Origin: Bispira polyomma
Taxonomy: Eukaryota
DNA length: 64,000 nucleotides
Reading direction: 5' to 3'
Assembly: GCA_965649765.1 (NCBI GenBank)
Contig: OZ287753.1
Span: forward strand, 28,086,001 to 28,150,000
Positions within the stretch are counted from its first letter, which is position 1, and each line of letters begins with the position of its first letter. Shown here in pieces: positions 1 to 63,508 of the stretch. The notes under the pieces are model-generated. The model worked only from the letters and a program-made list of their open reading frames with translations, had not been told where the DNA came from and ran no database searches. A program made the position numbers and the translations under genes.

Positions 1-1
1 C

Positions 2-1477
2 CCTCTTGATGTGTGTCAAAAAATTCATACCGAATCGAATGAAACTAACCATAAGTCGGCGGAGGAATGTCCTGAACATGTAGACGCCTATATGAGGGAA
101 GAATGTGACTTTGGGGCAATTCTTGGTCCTTTCGACACCCCACCAATTCAGAATTTGCATTGTTCCCCTTTAATGACCAGACATAAACCAAACTCGCTTA
201 ACAGGCGTGTGATTGTGGATTTGAGTTGGCCTCAGGGGGCTTCAGTAAATGCAGGTGCTTCCCCGACTTCGTATCTGGGTGTCGATTTTTTACTGTCTTA
301 CCCTTCTATTGATCATCTTACTGCTGAAGTGTCTAAATTGGGAAAGGGTTGTCAGATATTTAAAATAGACGTAAGTCGGGCGTTTCGCCACGTCCCCATC
401 GACCTTGGCGACATTGACCTCTTAGGGTTGAAGTGGAAATCTTACTATGTTGATAAATTGCTGCCGTTCGGTTATTTGAATGGCAGTACTATTTTCCAAC
501 GAATTTCGGATGCAGTGCATTTCATAATGCACTCAGAAAATCATAACGTCCACAATTATATCGACGATTTATTATGTGTATCACTTCCCAGCAAAATTCA
601 GAAAACGTTCATAAGATTGCAAGAATTGCTTGCTGAACTGGGTCTTACAGTTAGCCAGAAAAAATTGGTTTCCCCCAGCACTGAGGTAGTCTGTTTAGGC
701 ATAATAATAGACACAGTCAAATGCACAACTTCTATCCCGTCTGAAAAAATGGCAGAAATCCAGAGCAAGTGCAGGGATTGGGATTCAAAACATTATTGTA
801 CCAAGAGAGAACTACAGTCCTTACTGGGCCTTTTGCTATACATCTCTAAATGTATTAAATATGCTCGGGTTTTCTTGAATAGAATGTTGGAACTGCTACG
901 AGATAATCATAGTAAAAATAAAATTGTAATAAGTGATGCATTTAGACGTGACTTAAATTGGTTTACAACTTTTGCAGAGCAGTTCAATGGTGTTTCCTTT
1001 TTCTTACATAAACCCATATCAGGTGAGATAGAATTGGATGCCTGCCTCACAGGTATGGGGGGGATTTATGGAAATCAAGTATACCAAATTAAAGTTCCTA
1101 CAAGTATGGCAGAGTATAACATAGCTTCTCTTGAAATGTTGAACATTTTGGTAGCAATAAAATTATGGATTCAAAAATGGAAGGGTCAGAGAATTTTAGT
1201 AAGATGTGACAATCAGGCAGTAGTCAGTGTCTTACAGACAGGACGTACTAGAGACCCCATATTGGCCACCTATACTAGAAACATATACATGTTAGCCAGT
1301 AAGTTTGACATTGAAATTGTTGTGGTCCATATTCTAGGTAGAGAAAATAAAGTGGCTGACTTACTTTCCAGATGGGCCGAGACAGAAAGTAACCACCTAT
1401 TACTAAACCAATTGGCTGGACCTATTCAATGGCTTCCTGCTCCTGGAAATCTGCTTTTTGTGAACACTCTTATATAG
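2..1477 (+). CDS. E1 pol: reverse transcriptase + RNase H (5'-partial)
   Basis: Frame is open from the window edge (PLDV, matching E2 GFPLDF). Motifs RVIVDLS, KIDVSRAFRH, LPFG, YIDD, CLGI; RNase H ELDACLTGMGG, LEMLN, CDN, NKVADLLSR. Stop TAG at 1475-1477. Confidence 0.95.
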   Translation, partial: PLDVCQKIHTESNETNHKSAEECPEHVDAYMREECDFGAILGPFDTPPIQNLHCSPLMTRHKPNSLNRRVIVDLSWPQGASVNAGASPTSYLGVDFLLSYPSIDHLTAEVSKLGKGCQIFKIDVSRAFRHVPIDLGDIDLLGLKWKSYYVDKLLPFGYLNGSTIFQRISDAVHFIMHSENHNVHNYIDDLLCVSLPSKIQKTFIRLQELLAELGLTVSQKKLVSPSTEVVCLGIIIDTVKCTTSIPSEKMAEIQSKCRDWDSKHYCTKRELQSLLGLLLYISKCIKYARVFLNRMLELLRDNHSKNKIVISDAFRRDLNWFTTFAEQFNGVSFFLHKPISGEIELDACLTGMGGIYGNQVYQIKVPTSMAEYNIASLEMLNILVAIKLWIQKWKGQRILVRCDNQAVVSVLQTGRTRDPILATYTRNIYMLASKFDIEIVVVHILGRENKVADLLSRWAETESNHLLLNQLAGPIQWLPAPGNLLFVNTLI

Positions 1478-1501
1478 CAGGTTGTAGTTTTCTTTTTTCA
1501 G

Positions 1502-2487
1502 GCACTCACCCTGTGGGTCTGGCTCTGATGAGACGGGCTTGTGATAGGCTGAACTCAGCTCTCACTCCAGCCACTAATAAAGCATATGACAGGATGTTCC
1601 GACAGTTCCTAGCTTTTGGAGTCTTTATGTCTTGGCCTCCCCACAAGGTGACTGTGTTGCAAATTTTAGCATATCTAGAGTTCATAAATTTCAATGGTGT
1701 TTCGGCCTCTCAGGTAGTAAATCACATGTCGGCTGTGAAGGCAAAATGTGTCATGTTTCATATAGATGTGCAAGTATTTTCTGATCAGAGAATTTCTTAT
1801 TTCACTAAGGCCATGGCTATGCATAGACCTTTACAGGTGAAGTTGAAGTCAATTTTTGATGTGCACTTGCTTAGGGCTCTGATTAGTAAATGTGATAGTA
1901 CTTACATGGGGCAGATTTTCAAGGCTGTTTATTTGACAAATTTTTTCACATTTTTGCATTTATCCAATCTGTGTCCTCATTCAATGGGGTCATACTCTCC
2001 CCTTAAGCAACTAGCTAGAGCTGATGTTTTCTTCAAGCCAGGGTATGCGGTTATCATGGTCAAATGGTCTAAGACACTGCAGAGAAATGATGCAGTTCGT
2101 TTGTTAACCATCCCAAGTATACAAAATTCAATTAGCTGTCCTGTTCAGGCCTTGAAAGCTGTGTTAGCCATCTCACCAAAAGGGAAAAATCTCCCATTAT
2201 TTCAGTTTAAACTCCAAGGCTCGTGGGTTCCACTAACGGACACACGTGTGCGAAGGCACCTCAAAAATGTACTATCCTTACTTGGTACTCAGTACTCTGG
2301 CTTGACCTTTCACGCCTTCCGACGTTCAGGTGCCACCTTTGCGTTTAACAATAATGTCAAGATTCAAGATATTCAAAAGCAAGGCACCTGGACATCGGAT
2401 TGCGTTTGGCGTTACATCTCAGACTCTGTTGATGCTGGTACTCAGGTTGCTGATTCCTTTAAAAATGTCCTACAAAACACCTACTAG
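1502..2487 (+). CDS. E1 tyrosine recombinase (predicted 3' exon; ORF track 1429-2487)
   Basis: WSKT, CPV, HAFRRSGAT, GTWTSDCVWRY motifs. The first catalytic Arg is replaced by His (FLH, CAT at 1957-1959; E2 has FLR). Homology to E2/E3 begins right after the ttttcag acceptor at 1500-1501. Confidence 0.93.
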
Positions 2488-10850: not shown

Positions 10851-12373
10851 GATTCGGTTGCTAAGCTTTAGAAGATGCCTCGCATCAAAATATAAAAGTA
10901 AAAAAATTTCTAAATATAAACGTAAGACATACAATTCAGTGTTACTGTTGTTGATTTCAGTTGATGATTAGTAAAATTTGGTTAAAACCTTTGCAAATCA
11001 TTTCCCCTTTAATTGTGCAGGTCACAAAGTATTTGTGGTTTCCACTTTATCAATAGCAAATATTGTGGGGTTCTGGCAGTGGCATTATAAAGGCTGTACT
11101 TTATAATTGGAAACAAGCAACTAGCCAATAAAAATGGAAACACCCTAAAATATTTACAATACCACACTTTGTGTGGGTTAGGGTATTAATGTCATTTCTA
11201 TATTGTAGTTTGTTTTTATTTAATTTAATTTAATTTATTTAATTGGCTCAAACAAGTATTCACATCAGAATACTTTTAAAACAGTCACAGTCTATGGGGC
11301 TTCATTTCCAGGTCGCTTTGCATTCATCTCAGGGGAAATAACGAAGATAACATGTTTTTGACTGCAGGATTTTTGTAGCACAGCAAAATACAATTTAATG
11401 GTTGATGGTTAAAAAATATCCCGATGCCTTCGAGTTCAAATACAAGTTAGACATTATAAAAGCCACTATTTTAAATATTAAAGCATTCATTTATCTTTAG
11501 TGACAGTCAATTCAGTAAACAAAACAATGCAAAACACATTGTTAACCTTGCATTGTTAATATGACTTAACATAAGTTAATTTATATTCATACAAGTGACA
11601 GAAGTTACACTAAAAATAGTTATGAACAGTGTTATGTATTGACACATTTAAAACTGCAGTGACAATATGATAGAATTCTATATTTGTTGTAATTAACATG
11701 CTGAACTGTTTCCAATAATAGTTTCCAATAACACACTATCGAGTTGTATAAATATAACCAAGGTAATTTTATTTTTATTATTATTTTGGTAGGATAATCG
11801 TTTACATGTTTCTGAGACACAACAAGATGTTCGTAAGGGTCATAGATATTGATTTACTATAATTTGTAAGGTAGCCCGAAGGGGCTAGCAGGGTCAGTGT
11901 TAAGCAGGGACTTTATTAAGAACCTTTCTGGTCTGTATGACCCCAGTTTTCATTGGCTGTCAAATAACCTAATTTACACAGATTCCCGCCAAATAGCCTA
12001 AGGGGTTGACTTACTAAACCAAAGTCAAGCAGGCAACACACCATATTTAAATATAAACAATTTACCTTTATTTTATTTTATTTTTACATTTATGTGTTAT
12101 CTTGGAAGTCTAATACCTCACAGAGATTCAACTGATGGTTGCTGATCTTACTGGAGTGTTACAGACGGCATAATGCTTTGATATATGCGAATATTGCTCT
12201 GCTGTTTGTTGGAGCAGATTCTTGGGGGAAGTATTTCACTTCTACTCTTACTGTGGTATAAGTACAATTTATGTCACATCCAGCTCAGTATCCGCAGATA
12301 TCAAAGCACGGTCTTGTTTATATTGTGTTTTAGTGACATTTAAATTAACTGATTATAAGGAACTATCAAAGGA

Positions 12374-13448
12374 ATGGCACCCCGTAGACTTTATAAATGC
12401 ACGGCTTGTAAGACAAAGCATATAAAGCCAATTAATGAACAATGCCCTTGGCAGGATTTGGATAGCGACACGGAAGAAGCACAAAATGACAATACTATAT
12501 CAACAGCAGAGGTAAACCTTCGTATACTCCAAGAGTTAAAGGAACTTGGTAATAGAATGGCAAACAACCAGTGAGTAGCACACGGATACGACAGACACAG
12601 GCATTTGGCAGGTAGCAGGCACTGCAGCAACCCCAGGATCAGGCATTTGGCAGGCAGCAGGTGGTACAACAGACTCACAACGTGGAGGCAATTGGCAGGC
12701 AACAGAACCAATGGCCCACAGATGCAGAAGACCTGGTAGTCCCCTCTATCGAGACCTTAAGGCAGTCAGACCAGCTCCAGCTGCCAGTTGACAGCAGGCT
12801 GAAAGATTTGCAAGGATCAATGAGACAGGTAATTTCAAGTCTCAAAGGGGAGCACAGAAACAGTGTGGGTAAAGCAACATGTCCCTCGGCCCCAAAATTT
12901 TATTCTTGGAGGTCAGAGTAAAAATCGTATGTCTTACGACAATCTTTCCATGGCTCAGTGGGTTTCGGGGGTTTAGTGTTATAGCGCAAGAAGAAACAAA
13001 TGTAGAAATTAAAAATGCAATGCTGGAATACCTCGTAGAAATGATGGAAGATTGTCATGACTTCAGCTGGTCAGCTGCTAAAGGCAGCCATGCCGTCCTC
13101 CTATGTAAAATGGAGGAAGGCAAAATATCCTGGCTCGATACACATAAAATCGACAGGGTCAGACGAGCTCATGCTCAGAAACATGTACCTGCTCAAAGCT
13201 CCTCTTAATCATATAGCAGTAAAAGTGGCAGTAGCAAAGGCATGCCATGCAAATTCTACCAAAAAGGAACATGTCCCCATAAAAGTGACCATGAAACTAG
13301 TGGTAAATTTTATATACATGTATGTGCGACTTGTTCTGCAACGGGCAAGAACTTTCCCCACCCGGAAAAAGATTGTAGGAAAAAGATAGCTGCTGGGGCA
13401 AAAAACAAAATAGGCACTGCGAAACGGCAGTGCAACCAGATGAAATAA
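12374..13448 (+). pseudogene. E2 gag-like ORF (several frameshifts/stops)
   Basis: N-terminal CTACKTKHIKPINEQC Zn-binding motif and coiled-coil-like segment. Central GNFKSQRG..PQNFILG..YDNLSMAQWVSGF..CHDFSWSAAKGSHAVLLCKMEEGKISW. C-terminal CKFYQKGTCPH and CATC..HPEKDC zinc fingers. Homologous to E3 gag. Confidence 0.85.
13400..13433 (+). promoter_or_regulatory. Predicted -1 programmed ribosomal frameshift signal (E2 gag-pol)
   Basis: A-AAA-AAC at 13400-13406 in gag codon phase, a 7-nt spacer, then stem-loop gcactgc/gcagtgc (13414-13433). The -1 frame is open into ORF 13430-13753. Confidence 0.75.
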
Positions 13449-15764
13449 TTATGAAATGTTCGGATAGCATGAACAATTCAGAAAAAAGAACAAATTGCAC
13501 GTTGTCTCGAATTGTTTCTAACTCAAGTAATAGCAATGACATAAGTAATAACTGGAGAGCTGATTGGTCTCGGTTCGTAAACAAAACGTATGCACAAGTT
13601 GTGCAACAGGGCAGTAGTCAGAAAAAGGGCTCAAATGCAAATAAAATAAAACATAGTCTCCCCAGTTGTTCCTTCAAAGCCATTGCAAATGTAAATGTAA
13701 ATGTCAACAAATGTCATAGTGTACATACAAATGTCGGTAAAGTACATAAATAAAAATGTCATAACACAGAAAAGGTGAGTGCTGGCAAGTTGCCAGGGCC
13801 TAAATCACCAATTGTTGAGAACAATGGGGTTATAGTACAAAATCACTTTGACCCGCTTCTCTCCCTCAATGAAACGCCCCCCCCCCTCAAAATGTCACAA
13901 AGGTGGGTACACACACTGCAGGGTCACACAGGTGTACTGAACCAGCTAAAATAAATACTGAAACTTGTGCAATACAGGAGGACAAGTATAACCTCCAACT
14001 CCAAGTAAAAAACAGACATAAGGATATAGTTGCAAAGGCAAAAAATGGAATAGCCAGACAAAAGGTAAGTTCGGCTTCATTCCACTTAGTGAACTCATAA
14101 ATCTGGACACTGAAAAACCGAGTTTCAGAAATCACTCGGCTATCGAAATGCATACAGAGGTGAAAAGTAGTGCACAGCACAACTTTGTGAACAAACAGTT
14201 GGTAGTACATTCGCAGCTTAATTATGACAAATGGAAAGAACTTCTTAAAAACTACTGGGATACACAGTTACCATATTTGATTCGCTATGGCTTCCCACTA
14301 GATTTTGATAGGAAGTGTGAGTTAAAGCATAATGAACAAAATCACCACTCAGCTCGTGAGTTTACAGAAGACGTTAGGGCATATTTGAAAGAGGAAAAGG
14401 ATCACGGGGCAATTTTGGGTCCGTTTAACCGACCTTCTATTTAAGGACTGCATATATCACCATTCATGACCAGGGAGAAGCCTGGGGCCCCTCATAGGAG
14501 GGTGATAATTGATCTCCAGTTTTCTCCATGGCCATACAGTTAATGCAGCAATACACCAAAATCAGTATCTGGGAACGGAATTTCTATTAACCCTCCCAAC
14601 AATTGATGACGTCACAAATGAATTAACCAAATTGGGTAAAAACGCATTAATTTACAAGCTGGACATAAGTCGCGCCTTTCGTCACGTAAAATTAGATCCA
14701 GCTGATTATGACCTTTTAGACTTGAAGTTAGATTAGTACTACATTGACACGTGTCTACCATTTGGCTACAGACACGGCAGTGCCATATTCCAACGTTTAA
14801 GCGACGCAATGCATTACGTCATGCGTACCAAGGGATATGACGTAATAAATTATATAGACGACGTCATAGGGTACGGCAAAGCTCCTCACGTCCAAGATGC
14901 GTTTGACGCACTGTACAATCTTGTTCGAGAACTAGGTTTTGCAATAAGTGATAAGAAACTGGTAGCTCCTAGCAAAAGAGTAACGTGTCTGGGAGTACTC
15001 ATTGATACTGAAAATTTTACAGTAGAAGTTCCTCCAAAGAAACTAAGACAAATTTTACAAGTTTGTGATAGCTGGATAGGTAAAAAAGAATGCTCAAAAA
15101 GAGAACTCCAATCACTGCTCGGTTTCCTCCTTTACATATCAAAATGTGTGCGAGTAGCAAGAATTTTTCTCAACAGGATGCTAGACGTCCTGCGCAACGC
15201 ACCTGACGTAAAACGTATCAAATTAGAACTCCCCTTCTTCCAAGACCTGAATTGGTTCACTAAATTCACCAAAAAATTTAATGGTAAGGCCTTTTTCGAC
15301 CATAACCCAGTCACTGACCAGATGGAATTAGATGCCTGCTTAACAGGATTAGGTGGTCAATGCAATAATATAGTATATACAAAAATGCTCCCACTTCACT
15401 ACTTACAACTTAACATAGCTCATTTAGAAATGCTAAATATTCTAGTTGCTCTGCGGCTCTGGAAAAATGCATGGCAAGGCAAAAAACTAGTTGTACATTG
15501 TGACAACCAAGCAGTAGTCACTATTCTGAACTCGGGTAAGACAAAAAACTTAATTCTTGCAGCTATTACGCTTAACATCTTCATGGAAGTAGCAGAGGCA
15601 GACATTAACCTAAGGCCTGTGCACATATTAGGCAAACTTAATGTCAGAGCTGACTTGCTATCTAGATGGCATAAAACCTCTAAACCAAATACTGAATTGT
15701 GACAACTAGTGTCGAATGGGTAGAAGTCTCAGATAACATGTTAAATATTGACTGGAGTATTTAA
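13400..15764 (+). pseudogene. E2 pol: long N-terminal linker + RT + RNase H, disrupted
   Basis: Fragments 13430-13753, 13903-14100, 14148-14444, 14509-14736 and 14809-15702. Motifs KLDISRAFRH, LPFGYRHG, YIDD, ELDACLTGLGG, HCDN, ADLLSR. Likely original stop TAA at 15762-15764. Confidence 0.92.
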
Positions 15765-15774
15765 TCTATTTCAG

Positions 15775-16762
15775 ATATATCACCCCTGTCGCTCAATTAG
15801 CTGACCAGGCAGCATACACAGCCCATCAGGCCTTTAGGCCTGCTACACAGCATGCGTATAAAAGCATGTTTAGGGTATGTTTAGCCTACACCATATTTGC
15901 AAGCATTGACATTATCTACACTTCACCCACAGTTTTACTGTCATTTCTCCAAGTATTGGTAGCAAGTAAAGTCTCCCAGCCATCAATTGCCAATTATTTG
16001 GCTGCCATCAAAGCCAACCTTAGCTTGTATGGAATCAATGTCTTGGCCTTCTCAGACCAGCGTCTCAAATATTTCTAAAAGGCCCTAGTATTGCAAAGAC
16101 CATTCAGAGCAAGAATTAACAAGGTAATTGACATCCATCTGCTTACTCAAATAGTACAAATCTGTGACACTATGTATATGGGCCAAATCTTCAAATCAGC
16201 TTACTTATTAGCTTTCTTTTCCTTTCTTAGAATATCAAACCTGGTACCTCACACACTACATTCATTTAACCCACTGGAACAGTTAGCCATGGGGGATGTG
16301 TTCTTTGCTCCTCCTGGTCTACATTTATTAATTAAGTGGTCCAAAACCCTCCAGGACAAAAATCCAGTCAGAATAATTAAGATTCCCCGTATATATAACT
16401 CACCACTTTGTCCAGTAGTGGCCATAAGAAACACACTTGCTCTTTCACCCGGAACTCAAAACTCCCCTTTGTTTCAGTTTAAAAGTACAACAGGTTGGGG
16501 CCCACTCACAGACTCAAAACTAAGACATAATCTGAAGCAAATTCTCTCAAGACTTAACATGTCAGACTCCCCTATTACATTCCATGACTTTAGAAGATCT
16601 GGGGCCATGATGGCCTCCAACAATCATGTTCCCCTCCAGGATATCCAAAGCCATGGCACATGGACATCAGAATGTGTTTGGAAATATGTCACAAAAGACC
16701 ATAATGCATCCGACCAAGTAGCCATGGCATTTCAAAACCTACTATACAACCCTACTCCCTAA
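15775..16762 (+). pseudogene. E2 tyrosine recombinase, disrupted
   Basis: FLRISN, WSKT, LCPV, HDFRRSGA, HGTWTSECVWKY. In-frame TAA at 16076-16078 and an inferred 1-nt deletion near 15788. Confidence 0.92.
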
Positions 16763-16822
16763 TTTGGGTTTGGTGCTTTCTTTTAATCTCTTATATACTA
16801 TAAATACCATATCATGTATCTT

Positions 16823-17057
16823 AGACTAAGGTCACCTTTAAGCAGTAAACGTAAACTCAAATCTAACCTTAAATCACTAAGATTACCCTACCTTAAATCA
16901 CCATCTTAATCTAAGATGGCCTTAAATTCATATGGCATCTTGGGCTAAGATGACCTTAAATTCAAACTTATACTCAACATAGGGTAACCTTAAACTCTTA
17001 ACTTAATCTCAGTTAAGTTGTGACTTTACGACCATCTTAAACTGGTGACCTTAGTCT
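16823..17057 (+). other. E2 structured 3' non-coding domain
   Basis: Perfect 14-bp inverted repeat agactaaggtcacc (16823-16836) / ggtgaccttagtct (17044-17057). Nested stems ttacccta/tagggtaa, ccatctta/taagatgg, catctt/aagatg and aacttaa/ttaagtt. About 9 CTTAAA(T/C)TCA-like motifs. Confidence 0.8.
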
Positions 17058-17221
17058 TTCAGTTTGTACATAAAAGTAGATTAACAAAAAAGTAGAATAA
17101 ACTAATTACCCCAAAGGTTATGTTATCACTCTGTTATAAACCAACTACAAGGTCACCCTAGGACACTGAAATTATGCACAAATAAACACAACTAAAACAA
17201 ATCTGATTTCTTAAAACTGGA

Positions 17222-20200
17222 TCAATTGCAGGTAAAAACCATACTCAAAACTTTTGTCACTACATTTTTACTCAAGAATAAAAGATTTTAATGTACTTAG
17301 GGCTGGCCCGTCTCTATATTTTGTAAATATAAATTGATGGAAACAAACAAGGAATTACCAAAACTCTAAAATAAAAATAAAACAAATTCCAATTCACAGA
17401 TAGGCCAGATATGAGTCCCCAATGGTGTTTGAAGATAGGGAAGTTAGAGTGGGGCAGCAGAATGATGTCAATAAAGTATTTGATTTCTGCAACAGTAATA
17501 TATAGTATTTTGCACAGAAACAGCCATTTCTATCTGATGCTTAAATGTCAAGAAAAAAATTTAAGGGACCCTTACTTTCAAGATTAAGACAACATATCTT
17601 GATGAATGGCGATACATACTTTATCACTACTATTTATTTAATGTTAAAAATTTTTAATTTGTGCATGCCGTGAAGCTATACTTAAAAACTGAACTGATAA
17701 TTGTATGTTAGTTCAGTTTATACATTAGATGGTATAATAGACTAGATAGAGTCTTATAAAACAGTAGGCTTAACTCTAAACGTGTACAAAATTATCAAAT
17801 ATTGAAACCTACCAAGAGGGCTGGATGTACAACTTTCTGTTGCTGCCCCTATGTTATGGAATAATCTCCCTGTTAAGCTTAGATCACCCGAAACATTTTC
17901 TGGTTTTAGGAAAAACCCCGTAGTTCTATCTCTAAACACCCCAAATCCACCCTTACCGCGATGGCTATGTTTTATACTTCTCTATTGGTTAATTGGTTCT
18001 GATGGTGGGCATCAATAACGTGCTTTAAAAATACAATAATGTAATATCGCTTTCAGGTGTTTAATATCCATATTAGCAGGTGTTAAGTTACAATTATGTA
18101 ATAATGCAGCAAGTTCCCTTCTAACTCAGTGCATCTGAATAAATTGTAACCCACCTTTTTCAAATTTGTTCCCTGTTAAAACTTAAAAAAAAAAACCTTT
18201 ACACTTCTCCCTAACATACCACTGGCCAATCGCCACACAGGTACCTGTTTAGCATAGCGTTCACGCCTATCCACAAAATTCATTTTCACATTGAATGCAA
18301 ACAAGGAAGGACGTTTCAAGAAATTTAATTGCCATTGGACCACCTCCTAAGTATTAAAATCAAGTTCAATATATATTTATTTAACTTGACTTTCAACATC
18401 TTTGGTGACAGCCATATTTATTGCTGGATGAAACAATCCTTTCAAGCTTTATTTTATATGTCCTGATGAGGTTTATTTTCGTCAGACTTCAACCAATTTT
18501 TGTTTCCATCCACCCTACAGACATATGTTTCTATCTGTCTCATTTCATTGCAATTATGTGCTGAAAGATGTATATATGTAGTTATGTAAAGTTTGGATGA
18601 GTTTCTGCTGCTTTCTGCAGCATATTGGTATGACATCAGCCGAAAGAGGGAACAAAGCGAAATTCACATGTACATATTTGTCACATGGGTTTCATCATAT
18701 TAATAAATTCACAACAAAAAAACCATTACCACTATAGTAGCTAACAATTGATAATTTTGGAAAGACCACAATCAAGTTATCCAGTACAGTGCAAATGCTT
18801 TAGCAGAAACATTGAAACAGATTCAGTACATAATGAGCCAAAAATCGGCCAGATCTCTCTGTAAAAACAAAAAAAAAATGGGAAGCTTCTGTCGACATTT
18901 AATATATTAGGATAAAAGTATTAGGATAAAAAAAATCGGCCAACGTCGGCCGATATATGTCTGAGAAATGGAAGCCTCGGCTAAATCAATGACATACAAC
19001 AAGTACAGCAATTTTTTCCACGCCAAAAGACCTACTGGGATTTAATCCCATTGTCCTCAGATGTCAGTGGTAGTCTCTCAGAAGCTATTGACAATTAAAG
19101 CAGACACACATAACCACCAGGCCACTAAATATTGGGAAAATGCCTACTTTCTACTTTTGCTGGAAATTGTTAAGGAAATACTTTTGAACTTCCTTCAACG
19201 CCACAGAAAAAATACTAACTTTTTGTCAAACCTAAAGTTTAAATACATGTGCAGCAGATTTTGTTTACCAAGAAATGAGAATAACTTTCATAGTCGTAAT
19301 TAGGGCAAGGTGAGTAATTAGGTATACTTTGGACACACTGTACTGATCCTTGACAATAAAAAGAAAGCTTTTCTGGCGTTAATATTATGGAGAAGACATT
19401 TGATCATATAAAAATGTCAAAACCTCACCAGAGACAGGATCTAGTGGCCAGTGCTCTGCATTCCTATACCATGAAAGATTAAAACTAAGTATACTCATGC
19501 ATGATAATAGCTTCACCTATGGATTACTGTATATTGTCTTTATGGACCTACTTTATATAATACCTTGCCACACATCACAGTAGAACTGCCTGGACATTAC
19601 AATCAATTAATGGTTTTTGTATTGATGCCTTTGCCCCATAATTTTTATTCTCTCCACAGTTGTCTGATTGATGTTGATCTCTTTCTGACGCTAGCTGATG
19701 ATGTTTGTCTTCCAATATGTGTTTTTAACAGTGCCTTAGAATTTGGCTTCAGTGGGAAATGAAGTACTATAAGTACCCTATGGTACCTTATAGTCTAATG
19801 TAATAATTAATAATACACCGTAAGAGGCATTGTGGCATCCGTACTGATGTCTCTTCATACCTTAAAAAAATGCCTTTAGCTTCTCGTTCATTATCGAATT
19901 CTGTTTAAAAATCCATGTCACTACTTGCAAAGCTGTTGTCTCTCCCTTCCACTTTGCTACTGGCCTTTCCTTCAGTAACCTCAAGAGTGAAAATATACTT
20001 CCTGTTAAACCCACCAAGTGTACTGAATCTAAAGCTTTCTCAATCGCTGCCCCATCTTATGGAATGCTCTCTTAGTAGAGATTAGATCACAAGAACAACT
20101 TTCTGGGTCTTAAATTGCCGGGGGTAATCTAAAATTACAGTGGAGTAATTTAAAGGAGGGGGGGGGGGGGGGGGGTAATATAGAAAGGCTTCACCGGGAT

Positions 20201-43686: not shown

Positions 43687-45376
43687 CATAACATATGACA
43701 TAACCTTTGCCTTGACCACAGAAATTTTGAACGGTCATAAACTCCATAGAAAATTAAATGGAGTGAAATGTGGCTATATGGAAAGAAAACAAAGTCAAAT
43801 TTAAACAGAGCGCGAAAAATCCTGTGAGTATACTTGGAGATATCATGTATATATGTAAGTACGTGCGAGGTAACTTGTTTATATTTAGCCATAACTTGTA
43901 GATCTGCAACGAAAATGGTGTCAGTTTCCAGCTTTTTTTAGTGCATGTCCATGGGCAATGTACATGATCTATCTGCGTATATCCAGGAGCTTTCCAGCTT
44001 AACAGCTTAAAAGTTTGCAACCATAATCTAATGACTCTAACATGAAATTCAGTAGGTCATTCCTACTAAGTAGGAGCTTTAGAAACAGTGTAGCAACCTT
44101 GTCTATAACTCCACTAAAGGTAGGACTTAGTAGAATAATAGCTCCTAATTTCGGGAAGGCTTTGTGAAATATGGGCATTACCTTTTCAATGTAATTAGCA
44201 ATCATTTTGTTTTTGTATGTATGCAATCAATGCTGTCTCCACGTAGAAAGACACTATGAGATTGAAGTCAAATTTATTGTTGGGAATTGCCTTCATAAAA
44301 GGCCTACATACACTATTATTAAACAAAATATATAGAATTGAAAAAAATTACATTTATATTTTCTAAACGAAGCATCTGGTGAATTTTTCCCTTTGGCACT
44401 CATACTGGGAATGGACTTTTCAACTATTTAGAGGAAATTGTCAAATAGAAAATAATAAATTAAAATTAATCATATATAAGATGTGCTTAAGCATTAAATC
44501 ATACATATCAAGTTTTTGTTAATACAATCTGTTCTATGCAAAATCTGTTCCATGCAAATCATGTGATTTGGTCTAAAAGAAAAAACACACCTCAAATATA
44601 ACTTAACCACGGCACTCACAGCCAATCTTTCTAGTATCATTTTGTTGTCCATACACCAATCACTCTCTCTAGTTCCCTATTATCCGCCGTCAGATTTGGC
44701 AGATTTGGTGAGATTTGGTGTTACTGTAATTCACATTACACAGAGCATTAATATATTTTACTGGGATATAAAAGAAGCATAATGAAAAACACTCACCAAA
44801 AGAAAAGACACAGCAGCATTTATATGAAGTTTCACTGATTTTAATGAAATCTTTTATACTTGATATATAGCCAAACCACATGTATGATGTCATATATCAG
44901 GAACATCATTTCTACACTAAAGAAATTTACCTAACATTATATAGTTATGTATTATATTAGTCATGTAACAATCTGAAAAAAATGTCACCAAATAGGTTTG
45001 CATCTTTCAATTCAATAAAATTCCCCAGAAAAACAACATGCCATAGAATAGAAATGGTGTCCCTTTTACATTAGAGTAAAAAGGGAATCAATTTAGCTTT
45101 GGATACAAAGTAAATAACTTGAGAGGAGCTAGCAATTATGGGAAAATATTCTTGTGTCATCAGCAAAAAGTTATTTTTGCATTATCTCAAGAGTATTTAT
45201 CTCCCTCTCCCTCTTAGTCAATATCTGAAGGTTTTTCTATCTGCATCAGAGGCCCATCTATTTATTCATACATACACCCAGACATCCATACACTAAGGCA
45301 TATATCCACACATACACACCCAATCGTTTTTGTAAATGCACACCCATCTAACCAAATACACCCATGTTTCTGAATC

Positions 45377-45787
45377 TGATATGGGCGAAGTGCGCCCAGG
45401 TTCAGTCAACTGTGCAAGTTATAATCAAATCACTATTATGCAAGTTTATACTAGGGTCTCTTCAGGGCTTCCATAGGGTCACCTCACTTTGTGGCTGGGG
45501 AATAATTCCATACCTCAGACATATCAACCTTCACACTTTTCTGGTAGGGAAAAGCTCACTTTCAAACACTGCAATTTGTCATGTACACATTTTTATTTCA
45601 GACATTCCAATTTGTCATGTACACACTTTTATCCCAGACTTCAATTTGTCATGTACACACTTTATTAACTTCTCGCTTTTCCGCTGTATTTTTCCCCACC
45701 TGTCCAAAGTCTTGGTCCCTATATAAACCCCTTTCCCCCTGGGTTCTTTGCATTTGATTGTTGTTGTGCTGCCAGTAATTTTCTTGC
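45377..45787 (+). repeat. E3 repeat A1
   Basis: Four differences counted by eye against A2. Begins with hairpin gggcg-aagtg-cgccc and contains three ~35-bp subrepeats aatttgtcatgtacaca. Confidence 0.95.
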
Positions 45788-46324
45788 ACGTTTGGGGCAT
45801 CACAAAATAATCTCTTGCCATTCATAGCACTGAGCGGACAAGGTAGTAGTGCTGTACCAGATTTGATATTTAAACTGTTACGGACAAACTTGAGTCAAGT
45901 GGGTGAGAACACTGTGATCCTGGGTTACGCTACAGTGCCACTAGTTTCGTTTAGTTTTTTAGTTGATCTTTATGTCCTAAGGGTGGGCATGCTGTGAACG
46001 GACAACCAATAGTGTAGCAACTGTGGGACAGTTGTGTGGGGTCTGTGGGACAGGCCCGGTATTAGTGAACCAATAGTAAAGGTGACCCAGATAATGTATG
46101 ACTGATCCTGATAGTACACATAGAGTTAAAAATTGGTGGGCGTTGGTGTAAGAGTACGTTGTGATCTGGTACGAGGTACTGTGTTGGTGACCGTTTGGTT
46201 AAGTCGTGGGTGAGAAGCAGAATTGGGGCCAGTACTGGGGAATCTATGCAGGTAGAGAGAAAACTGCTGGTAGTGGCATGATTCCACCTGGTAGGGTAGC
46301 CAAGAAGTCTGCGTTCTGTAATCA

Positions 46325-47490
46325 TTGTTTAGTCAAACACGACAGGCCAGTTGGCGACTCTGTCGTTTTGTTGTAAGGACAAACACTAGAACTATGATTG
46401 ACCAAACCAAATTGTTCACTGATACTCAGATACCCCCAGGCCAGACACCTCGTGGTGAACTCTCTGGTGATAACACCGTGGTATTGGACCAAGGGTCCGA
46501 AACGAGGGCACCAGTCAATAAGTTGGACCAGATAATGGCTCATTTACAGAGACTAGAGGGTCAGGTAAAACAGGACAGAGAGAAAGATATGAACCTTTTC
46601 CTGGCGACCAGAGCTGCCGACGCTCCAGTGACGCCGGCTCCTGCCCCTGCTGTCCAGGCTGTTCCTGTCACTACCCAGAGGACTGGGTATGTGCTGTCCA
46701 CTGCAACTACCGAAGCCAGAGCCACCAGACCTGCTCCTGCCAGAGACTACCATGCTGAACTGGACGAATTGGAGTGAGGAGTCTTGCCCACCATGAGTTT
46801 TCTGAAGGAGAACCAGCCCATACAGCAGGAAGTTAATAGACATTTGACACAGCTAGATTTAGCAGACAGACATGACCACCTCGATGGGGTGCAAGGTAAA
46901 AAGATTAAATCTGGTCTATAGAGTAGGGGACACATTTGCTAAAGTAAACATAAATTTGCCTCATGAATTTTGTCTGGGACCTGATAGAGAATCTCCTGTG
47001 TATGATGAGCTTAGCTCAATTCAATTTTGCCAAGGGTTTATGGGATGTGTCCTTCAAGAGGAAAATGCTGTAGTGAAACAAAACATGTTAAGGTATGGCC
47101 ATCAGTTACTTCAGGATGCTCAAGAGACGAGCTGGTTTACGGCTAAAACGGCACATAAAATATTGCTCCAAGAAATGGAGAAAGGTAAAATCACTTGGTT
47201 AGATTTTCAGGACATTTCCAATATCAGAAGTAGATACACCCGAAGGGTGGTTCAGCCCCCTAATAATGCATCAAAATTGAAAGCCGCTCAGTCTCCGACA
47301 GCTGTACCTTGTAACTATAACAAAGGCCAATGTCACCTTAGATCAGATCATGTAGAGAGAAATGAACTGCACAAACATGGGTGTTCGTATTGTCATGGCA
47401 TAATTTAAGTTTTTTGGCCACAGCGAAAGTACCTGTAATAGGAAATTAAAGGAAGTGAGGCCTCCAAAAAATGAGGTGGCCAAACAGTAA
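46325..47490 (+). pseudogene. E3 gag-like ORF, disrupted
   Basis: Coiled-coil LDQIMAHLQRLEGQV. VLPTMSFLKENQPIQQEV aligns with E2 VVPSIETLRQSDQLQLPV. Further motifs GKKIKSG, YDELSSIQFCQGF, SWFTAKTAHKILLQEMEKGKITW, and Zn fingers CNYNKGQC..H and CSYC..HSESTC. Start codon not resolved. Confidence 0.85.
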
Positions 47491-49614
47491 ATTTGTTTAG
47501 GCGTACACGAATATTTAACTCTAATAGAGGTAAAGCTTTTATTGCCAAGTTTCACAAATCAAATAACCTTTACGACGAACCCATATTTGTGCATTCTAGA
47601 GTTTTTGTTAATTCTAAATTTCATAGACACAATTCACGTGTTGTGTCAGATGTTGGTAATAATGCTGAAAACATTCGTGTTCCCTTACAAACTATTGCTG
47701 ATGGCCCTACGGTAGCCTGTAATACTGAAGTAAATGTTGGTTTAGAGAGTGTCATTGACAATGAGAATTCTAGCAAGGTCTGTCCCTGGTAGATGCAAGT
47801 TCCACGTTACCTAATATAGACCATAATGTCACAAGTATTAACACACGTACTTCCTCTGGGGTCGATACTCGCCCTATTTACAGACTTTCTAACGAGTCTC
47901 AGTACACCCAGCAATTTGGGTTCGTGCGTCCATGCAGGAGTGATTACAGTCTGTCTGGTTCATATTCTCAAGTGGCTGCCTCTTCCTTTGATGACTGGGT
48001 TTTAAAAACACATGCTATTGTCTCCAAAACAGGCGTTTCTAATTATAAATCTTGTATTAAAGTTCCTTTCAGAACTGAATTTGCCTTTATGGTTAGATTT
48101 GTTTAAAAGATTACACTGACCCAATTCTCTATGAATATTTGATATTTGGATTTCCACTATGTGTGGATAGGAAAAGTTTTCGGTTTAATACTAGGGTGGA
48201 TAATCATAATTCAGCCCTTGCGTTTCCTAAGGACTTTGTATTTTTCTACAGAAACCAGTCACAAGGCTATGGCAGGCCCCTATGATAGGCAACCATTCGA
48301 ACATATGCATTTTTCGCCTTTACTTTCAAGGCCTAAATCTAACGACACACGTCGTATCATTGTTAATCTGTTTTACCCACAAAACATGTCTGTAAATAGT
48401 TGTGTACAGGATAACGTTTACGACGGATACGATTTGTTTGACATATCCCACTATAGACCACATTATAGATGAAATTGTTAGTGTAGGAAAAGATGCTTAT
48501 TTATACAAAATCAACGTAAGTCGCGCGTTTAAGAGCCTCCGAATTGACCCGGTTGATTATGACGTCATGGGGTTGTCTTGGGAAAAATAAGTTCTAATAT
48601 AGACGTGGCGGTAGCGTTTGGCTACAAACACGGATCTGGGCTCATGCAGCAATTGGTTGACTTTTTGTGTTTTGTTATGCATTCCCAAAATTATACTATC
48701 CTAGGATACATCGATGACGTCATTGGCGTCCAACGAGTTGATAGGGCTAGTGCTGCTTATCAAACCCTTTTATAACTTAATGGACAACTTAGGTTTGCCA
48801 ATCAACAGTGAAAAGCTAGTTCCCCCTAGTCGTAGAGTTACATGTATGGGTATTTTGACTGATGCTGAAAATGGTACAGTTCAAATTCCTGAGGAAAAGT
48901 TATCTGAAATTAGAACTTGTTGTAGACGTTGGGTAAATAGACGTTTTGCATCTAAGCGGGGTTTTCAGTCACTTTTGGGTCGGTTATTGTATGTCCATCG
49001 CTGTGTGCGCCCTGCACGTTTGTTAATCGCATGCTCCAATGCTTTAGGTCGGCTACTACAGATAGAATACCCCTTTCTGATGGCTTTCATCGTGACCTAG
49101 CTTGGTTTAATCAGTTTTGGTATTTAATGGCACTGTGATGATACACGACCAGAAACATATTGACCTTGAAGTACATGTGGACGCTACCTTTTCGGGTATA
49201 GGTGCAAAATGTGGCAATAATGTTTATGCAGCCACTTATCCTATTAATACTCTCGAGTTGTATACCATAGTTCGCCTAGAAATGGCCAATATTTGGGTTA
49301 TGCTAAACACGTGGCAAACAATGTTTAAGGGTAAACTCATAAGAGTACACTGTGATAATGAGGCCGTTGTGTCTGTTCTCAACACGGGTCGCTCTAGAGA
49401 TTCTATACTCATGGCTTATGCTCGTTCTATTTGGCTGTTAACAGCTAGTCTAGATGAACAGGTTCAATATGCCCATGTATATGGTGTGAATAATCAAGAC
49501 GCAGACTGTTTATCACGTTGGTTTTCTGGTCGTGTCTCTATTGAGCTATGCGAAAAGTTTTATAATTGTAAGTGGTGGGAAATTGACCCACAGGTGTTTT
49601 ATTCCAAATACTGA
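47466..49614 (+). pseudogene. E3 pol (linker + RT + RNase H), heavily frameshifted
   Basis: RRIIVNL, KINVSRAFK, AFGYKHG, YIDD, VTCMGI, FQSLLGRLLY, HVDATFSGIGA, LEMAN, HCDN, ADCLSRW. Confidence 0.92.
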
Positions 49615-49627
49615 CGTATAATTTCAG

Positions 49628-50296
49628 ATTCTCCCTTGGGTACTGCTTTGGCTAGGTTTGCTCTGCAAAGAATTTGAATTTGGATATTTAACGTCCACTC
49701 TAGTACCTTTGCTCTGCAAAGAGTCCCTTTGGCGTATAAACAGAAAACAAGGTCGGCATATTTTGCACAGTTTCGGTTGTTTTTGGCTTTTGCCATGTTC
49801 ATAGGTATAGACGGTTACACTTCGTGTGCGTACGTCATAATATTTCTGGAGTATTTAGTCCAAAATGATTTGAAGCCACCTACGGTAGCAAATTATCTGT
49901 CAGTTATTAGACATTATTTTATAGATTGTCATTACTGGGTGTAAATCACCTAAAGGTTAGAATGTTCATGAAGTCAGTTACTAATAATTTGCCTTATGCT
50001 CCCAAGGTGAAGGGTTTTATTGGTATTGATATGTTGAAGCAAATTGTTACTAAGTGTGACTCTATCAGAAACGGGTTGGTTTTGGCTTCTATCATTAACT
50101 CTTTAGGCCTTGACCCTTCACATTTCATAGCTTCAGGCGTAGTGTTGCTACATATGCTTTCAATACTAATGTTGCTTTCCAAAACATACGTATACATGGC
50201 AATTGGCGCAGTGACGCTATATATTCTTACCTTACTTCCACAAATGCCGCCCATAAAGTGGCTATGAATTTCAAACTAAAACTACAAAATACTTAA
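49628..50296 (+). pseudogene. E3 tyrosine recombinase, internally deleted and interrupted
   Basis: The N-terminal part aligns with E1/E2. The region with the first catalytic Arg and WSKT is missing (junction ~50075). HSFRRS and HGNWRSDAIYSY are retained. Stop TAA at 50294-50296. Confidence 0.9.
49672..49707 (-). mobile_element. 36-bp 5'-truncated tail of SINE family B (or its partner LINE) inserted in E3 YR
   Basis: Reverse complement of the 40217-40258 tail. Perfect TSD tttgctctgcaaaga at 49657-49671 and 49708-49722. Confidence 0.92.
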
Positions 50297-50304
50297 TTGG
50301 GTTT

Positions 50305-51285
50305 GGCATTAGCCCTTTTTCTTCGCTTGGTAGAATGTAGTATATTGATGTTTTAACCTACTAATATATTCAATGAGAATAAAAATACCCAAACGAGTAT
50401 TTATACTAACTTTTATTTGTCTGTGTTCACACACTACACTCATTCACACATCAAGGTCATGCTTCACCACATAGTCCCAACTATGCTTTACATACTAAGC
50501 TTGGGGACTGTGATATGGGCGAAGTGCGCCCAGGTTCAGTCAACTGTGCAAGTTATAATCAAATCACTATTATGCAAGTTTATACTAGGGTCTCTTCAGG
50601 GCTTCCATAGGGTCACCTCACTTTGTGGCTGGGGAATAATTCCATACCTCAGACATATCAACCTTCACACTTTTCTGGTAGGGAAAAGCTCACTTTCAAA
50701 CACTGCAATTTGTCATGTACACATTTTTAATTTCAGACATTCAAATTTGTCATGTACACACTTTTATCCCAGACTTCAATTTGTCATGTACACACTTTAT
50801 TAACTTCTCACTTTTCCGCTGTATTTTTCCCCACCTGTTCAAAGTCTTGGTCCCTATATAAACCCCTTTCCCCCTGGGTTCTTTGCATTTGATTGTTGTT
50901 GTGCTGCCAGTAATTTTCTTGCCCATCCTTAGTCCCTCCCCTTTATTGGGTTTTATTTTTATGGTTTTTAATTTGGGTTTCTTTGTTATTAATGTACAGG
51001 TCAAGGACCTTTGTGTTAACCCTTTGTGGGTTGTGTTAATTTTATATTGTATTAATGTCATATGTATATGTATGGGGCAGGCATTAGCCCTTTTTCTTCT
51101 CTTGGTAGAATGTAGTATATTGATGTTTTAACCTACTAATATATTCAATGAGAATAAAAATGCCCAAACGAGTATTTATACTAACTTTTATTTGTCTGTG
51201 TTCACACACTACACTCATTCACACATCAAGGTCACGCTTCACCACATAGTCCCAACTATGCTTTACATACTAAGCTTGGGGACTG
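50305..51285 (+). repeat. E3 3' repeat block B1 (50305-50510), A2 (50511-50922), unique spacer (50923-51079), B2 (51080-51285)
   Basis: Direct sequence comparison; three differences between B1 and B2. Each B carries AATAAA and ends in an agtccc../..gggact stem. Confidence 0.95.
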
Positions 51286-55204: not shown

Positions 55205-56660
55205 AAATCTATATCACTTTCACACAGTTTCTGAGAATGATGGTTTTAAACTCATAAAATCCTCTTGTATCGAATCCTGTGAACTGGATCCTATCCCTTC
55301 CAGTATTCTCTCTGAATGCCTGGACATTCTCATAACCCCCATTACAAACATTATTAACTTCTAAATTTGTGACTGTATTTTCCCCTTGTCTTTCTTTATG
55401 CTGCTCCTTGTCTTTCTTTATGTTGCTCCTTACTGAAAAAATAAGGCCTTGATAAAAATGTGCCGATAAGTTTTAGACCAGTCTTTGACCTTAGCTTCGT
55501 CCCTAAATTCATTAAGAAACTGTAGCAAAATACCACCTTAATAAACATAATCTTATTAACTCCGACCAGTCTGCTTACAGAAAGTTCCATGCCACAGAAA
55601 TGCCCTCCTTTTCATCAATGATGACATGAACCTTGTCTTGGATCGGCATGAAACTGTAGCCATTGACCATGGTCTACTGCTTGACATCCTAAAACAGTGG
55701 TTTGGACTAAATGGCAATGTCCTTGATTTGGTTAGGTCCTATCTCGCTTTCAGAAACCAAAAAATCAAACTAAATGATTACTTCTCATCCTCTTTCTACC
55801 TACCTTTCGGAGTACTCCGGGGATCAGTCTTTTACAAACACCCCCTTAGCACAGTCATCAATAGTCACAATGTTAAACACCATGTGTATGCTGGTGATAC
55901 TCAAATTTACCTTTTACTCGACCCTGATAATGCCCACAAAAATATAGGTCTAATTGCTGACTGCCTCTCCCTAGTACAGACTTGCATGATTTACTACAAA
56001 TTAAATTCTGACAAAACTGAATTCATTCTCATTGATAATAAGAAACACAGTGAGTATGTAAGATCGTTATTCCCCGTTACACTGTTGGGCAATGATAATC
56101 AGCTCTCCGCTAATGTCAAAAAGCTTGGTGTCACCATTGATCCACTTGGTCATTTCATACACACACGAGCAACATTTGTTGCTCCTGTTACTATCACATT
56201 CATGTCAGCAAAAGAATCCGAAATCATTTGTTACTGGATACTGCCATTACTGTGGCTAACTTCCGTGTTAGCTGCTGTCTGGACTACTGTAATTCCCTTT
56301 TGCTTGGAGCAAAAGAGTCTCACATATACAAATTGCAGTTCATTCAAAACTGTTTGTGTCGAATAATCTTTTGTCTGGGTATCCATACTGATGTCTCTCC
56401 ATACCTCAAAAAAATTACATTATTCACTATAAAATTTTGTTTAAAGTCAATGTGACCACTTTCACAGCCCTCATACCTCGCTGCTCACCTTTCCTTCAGC
56501 AACCTTAAAATATTTGTTCTAACCTCTGTTTGATCAACCAAGAAGGCTGGGTCAAGAGCTTCCTCTATTGCTGCCCCTATGTTATGGAATGGTCTCCCAG
56601 TTGAGTTAAGATCACTAAAGCTTAAAACATATTGCTTCAAACTCGGCTAACCGCTTAGTT
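55205..56660 (+). pseudogene. Decayed L2-like LINE ORF2 (RT) with 3' end
   Basis: CELDPIPSSILSECLDILITPITNIIN, IDHGLLL, PFGVLRGSV, HVYAGDTQIY, KLNSDKTEF, LDYCNSLL. The 3' block ttgctgcccctatgttatggaat also occurs at ~17840, ~20045 and ~23740. Confidence 0.88.
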
Positions 56661-61859: not shown

Positions 61860-62887
61860 AAAGACTTTGGGTCCCTCCTTCAAGGTCATACGAGGATAAC
61901 CAAACTTAAAAGTGCTTATAACTCGCTTATTATTGGTTCTAGAGGTTTGCAATGTGAAACCAACTTATAGGTAATCATGGGCTAGGACTCTTCTAATGTG
62001 GTGAGATTTGACCTTCGGCCCCTTCTTCAAGGTCAGACAAGGGTAGTTAAACTTAAAAGTGCTTATAACTCGCTTATTATTGGTTCTAGAGGTTTGCAAT
62101 GTGAAACCAACTTATAGGTAATCATGGGCTAGGACTCTTCTAATGTGGTGAGATTTGACCTTCGGCCCCTTCTTCAAGGTCAGACGAGGGTAGTTAAACT
62201 TAAAAGTGCTTATAACTCGCTTATTATTAGTCCTACAGTTTTGAGATGTGAAACCAACCAATAGGAAATAATGGACTAGGAATCTTCTGATGTGGTCAGG
62301 TTTGACTTTGGGCCCCCGCCTTCAAGGTCAAGTGAGGATAACCAAACTTAAAAGTGCTTATAACTTGCTTATTATTGGTCCTAGAGGTTTGCAATGTGAA
62401 ACCAACTTACAGGAAACCACAGGCTAGGACTCTTCTGATGTGATCAGATTTGATTTTGGGCCCCTTCTTCAAGGTTAAACGAGGGTAGTTAAACTTAAAA
62501 GTGCTTATAACTCGCTTATTGTTGGTCCTACAGTTTTGAGATGTGAAACCAACCAATAGGAAATCATGGACTGGAAATCTTCTGATGTGGTCAGGTTTGA
62601 CTTTGGCATTCAAGGTCAAGTGAGGATAACCAAACTTAAAAGTGCTTATAACTTGCTTATTATTGGTCCTAGAGATTTGCAATATGAAACCAACTTATAG
62701 GTAATCATGGGCTAGAACTCTTCTGGTGTGGTCAGATTTGACCTTGGGCCCCTCCTTCAATGTCAGACGAGGGTAGTTAAACTTAAAAGTGCTTATAACT
62801 GGCTTATTGTTGGTCCTACAGTTTTGAGATGTGAAACCAACCTATAAGAAATCATCGGCTGGGAGTCTTCTGATGTGGTCAGGTTTT
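61860..62887. repeat. Tandem repeat, ~147-bp unit, ~7 copies
   Basis: caa(g/t)gtca anchors at 61881, 62028, 62175, 62323, 62470, 62611 and 62758. Confidence 0.95.
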
Positions 62888-62899
62888 GTGGAACAACTT

Positions 62900-63508
62900 T
62901 TTATGTCGTAATTATGACATAAGGTTATGTCGTATATCTTGTAATTACGATATATAAACTGTAATTAGTTAAGTCTTAATTAAGACTTAACCTTATGTCG
63001 TAATTGAGAGATAACACTATCTTGTAATTACGACCTCAGGTTATCTTGTAATTACGACCTCAGGTTATCTTGTAATTTCAACATAAGGCTATCTCATAAT
63101 TTCAACATAAGATTACGTCGTAATTTCAACAAAAGGTTATCTTGTAATTTTAACATCTTTCTCTATAATACAAAATCCATCCGAAAATGTAGGTAATTTT
63201 GTTTATCATTTTATTTATTAAATAAACACGGATGTTGTAATTATGAGAAAGCCTAATCTCTTAAATATAAGACAGTTTTATATTGACATTATGAGATAGC
63301 ACTATGTTGGAATTACAAGATAGCACTATGTCGAAATTACGACATACCATATATTTGTTTTCCCATTTTTAAAAAAAGTTTGTTTTATGTTTAAAAAAAA
63401 GTTGGTTTTCCGTTTAAAAAAAAAAATTATCTCGTAATTTTGACATAGCACTATCTTGTAATTACAAGATAATTATTTATTTTTTATGACCTGTATAGGC
63501 TTCCGTAC
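62900..63508. repeat. Array of ~22-bp palindromic units (tatc/gtcgtaattacgaca..), probably a truncated MITE-like element
   Basis: More than 15 degenerate copies of ttatcttgtaattacgac; ends in aggcttccgta. Confidence 0.7.

Follow-up and report, generated by a model that had tools for sequence, protein, structure and literature searches.

The window analyzed here, a stretch of 64,000 nucleotides from the 1.04-Gb genome of Bispira polyomma, contains at about 11865-17168 a tyrosine recombinase (YR) retrotransposon, denoted E2, in which a gag-like ORF, a reverse transcriptase (RT)/RNase H region and a tyrosine recombinase follow one another on the same strand (Table 1). The matches of this copy to the Pfam families RVT_1, RT_RNaseH and Phage_integrase are all just below the curated cut-offs, and the match of the gag-like ORF to zf_CCCH_4 is weak (E 0.016). 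The RT/RNase H region closes with a DWSI-stop tail and lacks a methyltransferase extension: the Pfam scan of the window pieces gave no methyltransferase match, and pol ends soon after RNase H, with the YR next. The N-terminus of Pol carries a conserved motif, W-x-x-D-W...Y-A-x-V-V (from 13553 onward in the window; 40 of 120 Pol homologs), for which no convincing Pfam match was obtained.

Table 1. Features of the E2 element, with positions numbered from the first letter of the window.
Feature	Position	Strand	Basis or remark
5' split direct repeat A1	11865-12033	+	93% match to A repeat of sibling L068
gag-like ORF1, C-terminal Cys/His zinc-finger region	12374-13448	+	reading frame disrupted (frame changes, stops)
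Predicted phase-1 splice donor in gag, CAG/GTAATT (slash, splice point)	12829-12834	+	G/GT at this place in relatives
-1 frame ORF, N-terminal part of Pol	13379-13753	+	W-x-x-D-W motif at 13553; in-frame ATGs 13451, 13469
Slippery heptamer A AAA AAC	13400-13406	+	gag phase, read from sequence
7-nt spacer AAAATAG	13407-13413	+	no gag stop in gag phase here
Predicted stimulatory hairpin GCACTGC-N6-GCAGTGC	13414-13433	+	fold; arms constant, loop variable in relatives
RT/RNase H region, in pieces	14022-15764	+	Pfam RVT_1 E 2.3e-6, RT_RNaseH E 4.7e-4
Predicted splice acceptor TCTATTTCAG/ just after pol stop	15765-15774	+	YR phase matched in siblings
Tyrosine recombinase ORF, broken	15775-16762	+	Pfam Phage_integrase E 1e-5
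3' split direct repeat B	16773-17168	+	92% match to B repeat of L068

Only A1 and one B repeat were found in the window, where the second A and B copies known from siblings were not detected; complete A..B A..B split direct repeats were identified in five of the 12 siblings examined (L062, L064, L068, L069 and L070). By the structural definitions given in the available portions of the literature (PMC4157794, PMC8547959, PMC3783388), E2 is a Ngaro-like element, an assignment made on structure, and the available text of PMC4157794 cautions that structure by itself can mislead in classifying such elements. The gag of the window copy aligns to that of a sibling in several frames, and its pol and YR contain stops and frame breaks. 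The window copy is a fossil that is unable to bring ribosomes from the gag ATG to the slippery site in frame.

Two other element families are represented in the window, namely E1, another Ngaro-like family (window 1-2487 and L031), and E3 (window 45372-51285), the split direct repeats of which are near-identical (97-99%). Additional repeats include a tandem array of roughly 147-nt units (61872-62894) and an array of 24-nt repeats with inverted arms (62980-63472). A 268-codon open frame at 55560-56366, with related short 3' fragments at 17841, 20044, 23738 and 56569, resembles, by eye, a non-LTR (LINE-type) reverse transcriptase in a decayed state.

At the gag-pol junction of E2, the codons GCA AAA AAC, in frame with the upstream Cys/His zinc-finger region of Gag, contain the slippery heptamer, which is followed by the spacer and by a predicted hairpin with a stem of 7 bp, five of them G-C pairs (arms GCACTGC at 13414-13420 and GCAGTGC at 13427-13433; loop GAAACG). 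The hairpin folds with -13.7 kcal/mol (z -3.8), a value that none of 200 shuffles equals. The heptamer in gag phase, the 7-nt spacer and the 7-bp stem are all present as claimed in the original prediction, and the arrangement as a whole, with an in-phase X XXY YYZ, a spacer within 5-9 nt, a predicted 3' structure and a downstream frame in -1, is the standard eukaryotic layout for -1 programmed ribosomal frameshifting that had been recognized there. Two further details of that prediction hold in part. The gag-frame TAA expected at 13446-13448 is indeed there, but it is not where most relatives stop (see below); and the -1 frame, which had been described as an ORF at 13430-13753, is in fact open over 13379-13753, but 13430 is only a GTG, and the frame stops at 13753, short of the RT. 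Unlike in the window, the spacer of most relatives contains the gag stop (GAN TRR G). A search against Rfam returned just a chance match to mir-384 (E 2.5). Given that a generic slippery heptamer followed by a hairpin of -12 kcal/mol or lower occurs at three places in the window (both strands, E2 site included), the layout by itself is within chance; it is the position, phase and conservation of the cassette that go beyond it.

The pattern composed of the heptamer, GAN, a stop and GGCACTG has 455 exact matches in the genome, compared with none for a reversed-pattern control, and 507 when synonymous codons are allowed; among the first 100 listed of these 507, AAG does not occur, AAT occurs nine times and the first A is missing twice. 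Because circularity was to be avoided, relatives were also sampled independently of the junction: a gag motif located ~300 nt upstream of it has 362 matches, and the first 90 of these were taken. The exact heptamer is present within a 190-nt junction window in 76 of these 90 relatives, as against 5-13 in six downstream control windows and five in an upstream one, and the heptamer together with the hairpin in 64, as against none in the controls. The end of gag is intact in 46 of the 90 loci, and 42 of the 46 encode a K-N tail (one of the 42 is a mis-pick in a frameshifted copy). Within this tail, Lys is encoded by AAA in all 42 loci (background 69%) and Asn by AAC in 39 (background 38%), and the codon preceding AAA AAC has A as its last letter in 41 (background 24%), whereas the residue that it encodes differs: Ala (21 loci), Ser (7), Thr (6), Val (5) and also Ile, Pro and Arg. 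The gag stop is TAA in 23, TAG in 13 and TGA in six of these loci, and it is located one codon past the heptamer in 37 of the 42, so that the stop at 13446 in the window is atypical. When the sequences are grouped at 85% identity, 20 of the 23 clusters agree, although the clusters share kinship and the counts are not independent events. A stem-anchored genome listing is consistent with the link between heptamer and hairpin and was left out of the counts; a loose search for the heptamer with a GC pattern was drowned by background matches.

The arms of the main-clade hairpin are almost constant: among 511 cells, 488 are the same, eight are G-U and 15 are broken, without a single compensatory change, and the loop varies while the arms stay constant. 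Accordingly, the case for a structure in the main clade rests on the constancy of the arms against the variable loop. A pseudoknot stimulator of the MMTV type was considered for this clade and rejected, as the pairing of the loop with the downstream sequence is about the same as in shuffled sequences (mean run 3.88 vs 3.81, n=49).

The W-x-x-D-W motif of Pol was found in 28 of the 35 loci with an in-phase heptamer, and in 25 of the 28 it lies in the -1 frame; elements that combine long gag and long pol frames in the -1 register were identified as well (L237, L242 and L246). This register agrees with the original prediction, but gag runs into pol in one frame in three (L236, L243 and L244) of 20 regions selected on the length of their open frames; of these, L243 is set apart from its sibling L242 by a deletion of 11 nt, the A-run of L244 is longer, and in L236 the frame changes inside gag. 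In seven of the 15 copies shown of the window subfamily, a -1-frame stop directly follows the stem; six of the seven have ~99% identity, and the two that were compared over their full length have common flanks, which suggests duplication of a single decayed copy. The ~99% identical copies L002-L005, L008 and L009, three of which are located about 46 kb apart on C8, are likely segmental duplicates. In another family (L254-L265), the hairpin stem contains a C-run that spans 7 to 15 bases among the 12 copies, and the register is -1 in six copies, 0 in three and +1 in three; this variation may reflect assembly error, a mutation hot spot or slippage.

The same heptamer is found next to other hairpins in more distant relatives, whose RTs, in the families compared, are 40-63% identical to that of the E2 clade. 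In a sample consisting of the best 30 of 150 scored loci retrieved with a distant RT query, 21 loci have a recognizable zinc finger, and the heptamer is in phase in 16 of the 21. Together with the 76 of 90 gag-picked relatives, this speaks, at the family level, for the conservation of heptamer and phase in better-preserved copies that the original prediction had named as a check. The hairpin of the RT-picked clade differs in sequence from that of E2; across 15 aligned representatives, 92.7% of the cells pair and 11 are unpaired, with 24 one-sided and three two-sided compatible changes, and the covariation score is above that of 496 of 500 shuffles (four reach it), a rank that relatedness can inflate. 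In the E1 family, the heptamer is present in 17 of 20 cases, and the siblings read A AAA AAC TGA followed by a hairpin with arms CCACTGC/GCAGTGG, in which the first pair is flipped relative to E2; the heptamer of the E1 copy in the window is changed. A further group has the hairpin arms GCCAGCAC/GTGCTGGC. The E3 family retains the heptamer in 14 of the 18 junctions found (20 loci), with no convincing hairpin in this family (consensus fold -0.28 kcal/mol). Its conserved CAGTAAA, GTACAC and TTTAC blocks could, by eye, form a weak pseudoknot.

Support from other assemblies is at the protein level only. KNE or KND is the C-terminus of 24 of 49 Gag relatives in these assemblies (at most 61% identical to the loci here), some Gag proteins from other assemblies also read through the stem, and seven of 120 Pol predictions show K-K-R/L, as would be expected from translation in the -1 frame. 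No DNA relatives from other species were detected in the metagenome and viral contigs searched, and a protein atlas search with Gag returned unnamed clusters with a recognition value under the threshold.

The heptamer is thus conserved in sequence and in phase, the N-terminus of Pol is in the -1 register, and pol has no conserved ATG. We consider it likely that, at the family level, the heptamer and the hairpin at the gag-pol junction constitute a -1 programmed ribosomal frameshift signal that gives Gag-Pol. The available portion of PMC5009743 counts A_AAA_AAC among the eukaryotic heptamers most prone to shifting and gives 5-9 nt as the usual spacer of eukaryotic -1 signals. The hairpin would make ribosomes that translate gag pause while AAA AAC occupies the P and A sites, and tRNA-Lys and tRNA-Asn would then slip in tandem from AAA AAC to AAA AAA. 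A minority of ribosomes, now one base back, would read pol and produce a Gag-Pol (RT/RNase H) fusion, and most would stop just past the heptamer and release Gag, resulting in a low Pol:Gag ratio. The claim that Pol is made as Gag-Pol is therefore supported for the family by heptamer, phase and register, but not for the window copy, which is too broken to work.

Several other ways to express pol, or to interpret the palindrome, have to be weighed against this proposal. Pol could start at its own AUG downstream of gag, through internal initiation or from a separate transcript, with the heptamer merely coding for the K-N tail. In-frame ATGs are present in the window at 13451, just after the stem, and at 13469, the former being common to 14 of the 15 copies shown of the window subfamily (L001-L016), and in the E1 family codon 43 is a Met in most cases. 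However, there is no Met between the heptamer and the W-x-x-D-W motif in 21 of the 25 loci with the motif in the -1 frame or in the upstream overlap of the -1 frame in any of the 35 loci, and the first Met of Pol can come after codon 300 (L047, L155 and L174). Moreover, a K-N tail does not need the fixed synonymous positions of the heptamer. A separate pol ATG, which the original prediction regarded as evidence against frameshifting, is present in the window subfamily but not in most loci, and we find initiation of Pol at such an ATG very improbable. Termination followed by reinitiation, either at an AUGA overlapping the gag stop or at the in-frame GUG of the 3' arm, appears even less probable. 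An overlapping ATG does occur in the copies with GAA TGA (L052, L127 and L168), as does an in-frame GTG in the 3' arm of the main clade and E1, yet TGA is the stop in just six of 42 loci, the position of the stop varies (0, 1 or 7 codons; 5 in the E3 family), and the heptamer is retained in the L145/L162, RT-picked and E3 families, which lack that GTG.

The lowest probability is assigned, in equal measure, to the two remaining interpretations. Production of Pol from a spliced mRNA with an acceptor near the spacer would be compatible with the AG that most spacers contain (TAAG, TGAG, TAGG) and with the conserved donor in the gag of these elements, but the sequence upstream is A-rich and lacks a pyrimidine tract, the AG moves by one base between stop types, and the fixed letters of the heptamer are left unexplained. 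The palindrome, for its part, could be a DNA- or protein-binding site (a recombinase core site or a packaging or dimerization signal) and not a frameshift stimulator, as the main clade combines 8-bp arms with a 6-bp variable center and shows no covariation, an architecture that, we presume, resembles a recombinase core site. In other families, however, the hairpins at an equal distance from the same heptamer differ in their arms and have longer loops as well as bulges and G-U pairs. A second role of the palindrome alongside frameshifting may exist. None of these alternatives accounts for the fixed synonymous positions and the replaced hairpins together.

In addition to the proposed frameshift at the gag-pol junction, these elements contain predicted splice sites that could account for the expression of the recombinase. 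A phase-1 G/GT donor is located at the same place of gag in 83 of 91 motif hits from the E1, E2 and E3 families (loci overlap between searches), and the acceptor lies 6-16 nt past the pol stop in siblings. Downstream of the acceptor AG, the YR is in the matching phase in all 11 full-length relatives in which the junction was found (12 examined), while relative to pol it occurs in each of the three frames among siblings. Sites of the same kind are found in the RT-picked clade and in E1, where the acceptor is in some cases immediately preceded by an in-frame ATG; conserved donor/acceptor pairs were noted in the siblings L062-L073 and L234-L252. Phase-matched conserved sites combined with a varying YR frame favor a putative GagN-YR splice over frameshifting as the mode of YR expression. 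Frameshifting into the YR was rejected on account of this variation and because only one of 10 elements has a slippery heptamer in the 90 nt that precede the pol stop. As for the splice that the original prediction had invoked, the conserved, phase-matched sites argue for it, but the phase no longer matches in the window copy. The predicted splice is not among the 15 joints shown of 73 (three runs of unrecorded type, all 30 bins), an observation that bears neither way.

Combining the two parts, we lean somewhat toward a scheme in which one transcript would give three products: Gag; Gag-Pol, through a -1 frameshift on an A AAA AAC that stays invariant while its hairpin would have been replaced several times; and a GagN-recombinase, through a phase-1 splice excising pol entirely together with the remainder of gag. 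If true, this three-product program replaces the published suggestion of a frameshifted YR for the E2-type clade, and the recombinase gains a Gag-derived N-terminus for packaging or targeting.

In the portions of the literature available to us, the expression of the second and third ORFs of YR retrotransposons is only guessed. The available text of PMC13003380 quotes Poulter and Butler 2015 for the proposal of programmed frameshifting for the Ngaro YR ORF. No description of a gag-pol slippery site or of a GagN-YR splice in DIRS, PAT or Ngaro was found in the accessible parts of the literature, including PMC6681497, PMC3266345, PMC9210276, PMC7192593 and bioRxiv 10.1101/2021.01.25.428050; Goodwin and Poulter 2004 or Poulter and Butler 2015 may already propose the gag-pol case, and paper supplements or Repbase annotations could bear on priority. 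The portion of PMC5009743 searched makes no mention of DIRS or Ngaro. The frameshift mechanism itself is canonical, the element group seems to be one in which such a signal was not previously defined, and the pairing of the frameshift signal with a likely GagN-YR splice is the more novel part. A defined cassette of 35 nt makes the expression question directly testable in a reporter, and for annotators it follows that a Ngaro-like pol ORF without a start codon is not necessarily broken. Furthermore, hundreds of copies with several hairpins and one fixed heptamer amount to a natural series on the replacement of frameshift stimulators.

The cassette resembles the retroviral gag-pro and gag-pol signals and those of Ty3/Gypsy elements in the X XXY YYZ in the upstream frame, the spacer of 5-9 nt, the 3' structure and the enzyme ORF in -1; the heptamer of MMTV gag-pro is likewise A AAA AAC. 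Unlike in those systems, the gag stop of the E2 clade is usually within the spacer, and, unlike the MMTV-type stimulator, that of the main clade is a plain hairpin, for which no sign of a pseudoknot was obtained. The host also differs, E2-type elements being YR retrotransposons; the described group to which E2 is likened lacks a protease and a DDE integrase, according to the available portion of PMC3783388. Among animal LTR retroelements, pol is in -1 in 28 of 51 according to a survey cited in the available portion of PMC5009743. With Ngaro (order DIRS), as defined in the available text of PMC4157794, PMC8547959 and PMC3783388, E2 shares the order of gag, RT/RH and YR, the lack of a methyltransferase extension and the A1..B1 A2..B2 repeats, and it differs from Ngaro in the gap of roughly 550-870 nt between the matched A2 and B2 repeats of its siblings. 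In contrast to the frameshifting proposed for the Ngaro YR ORF, the slippery site described here is at the gag-pol junction, and the YR is found in varying frames behind a conserved acceptor.
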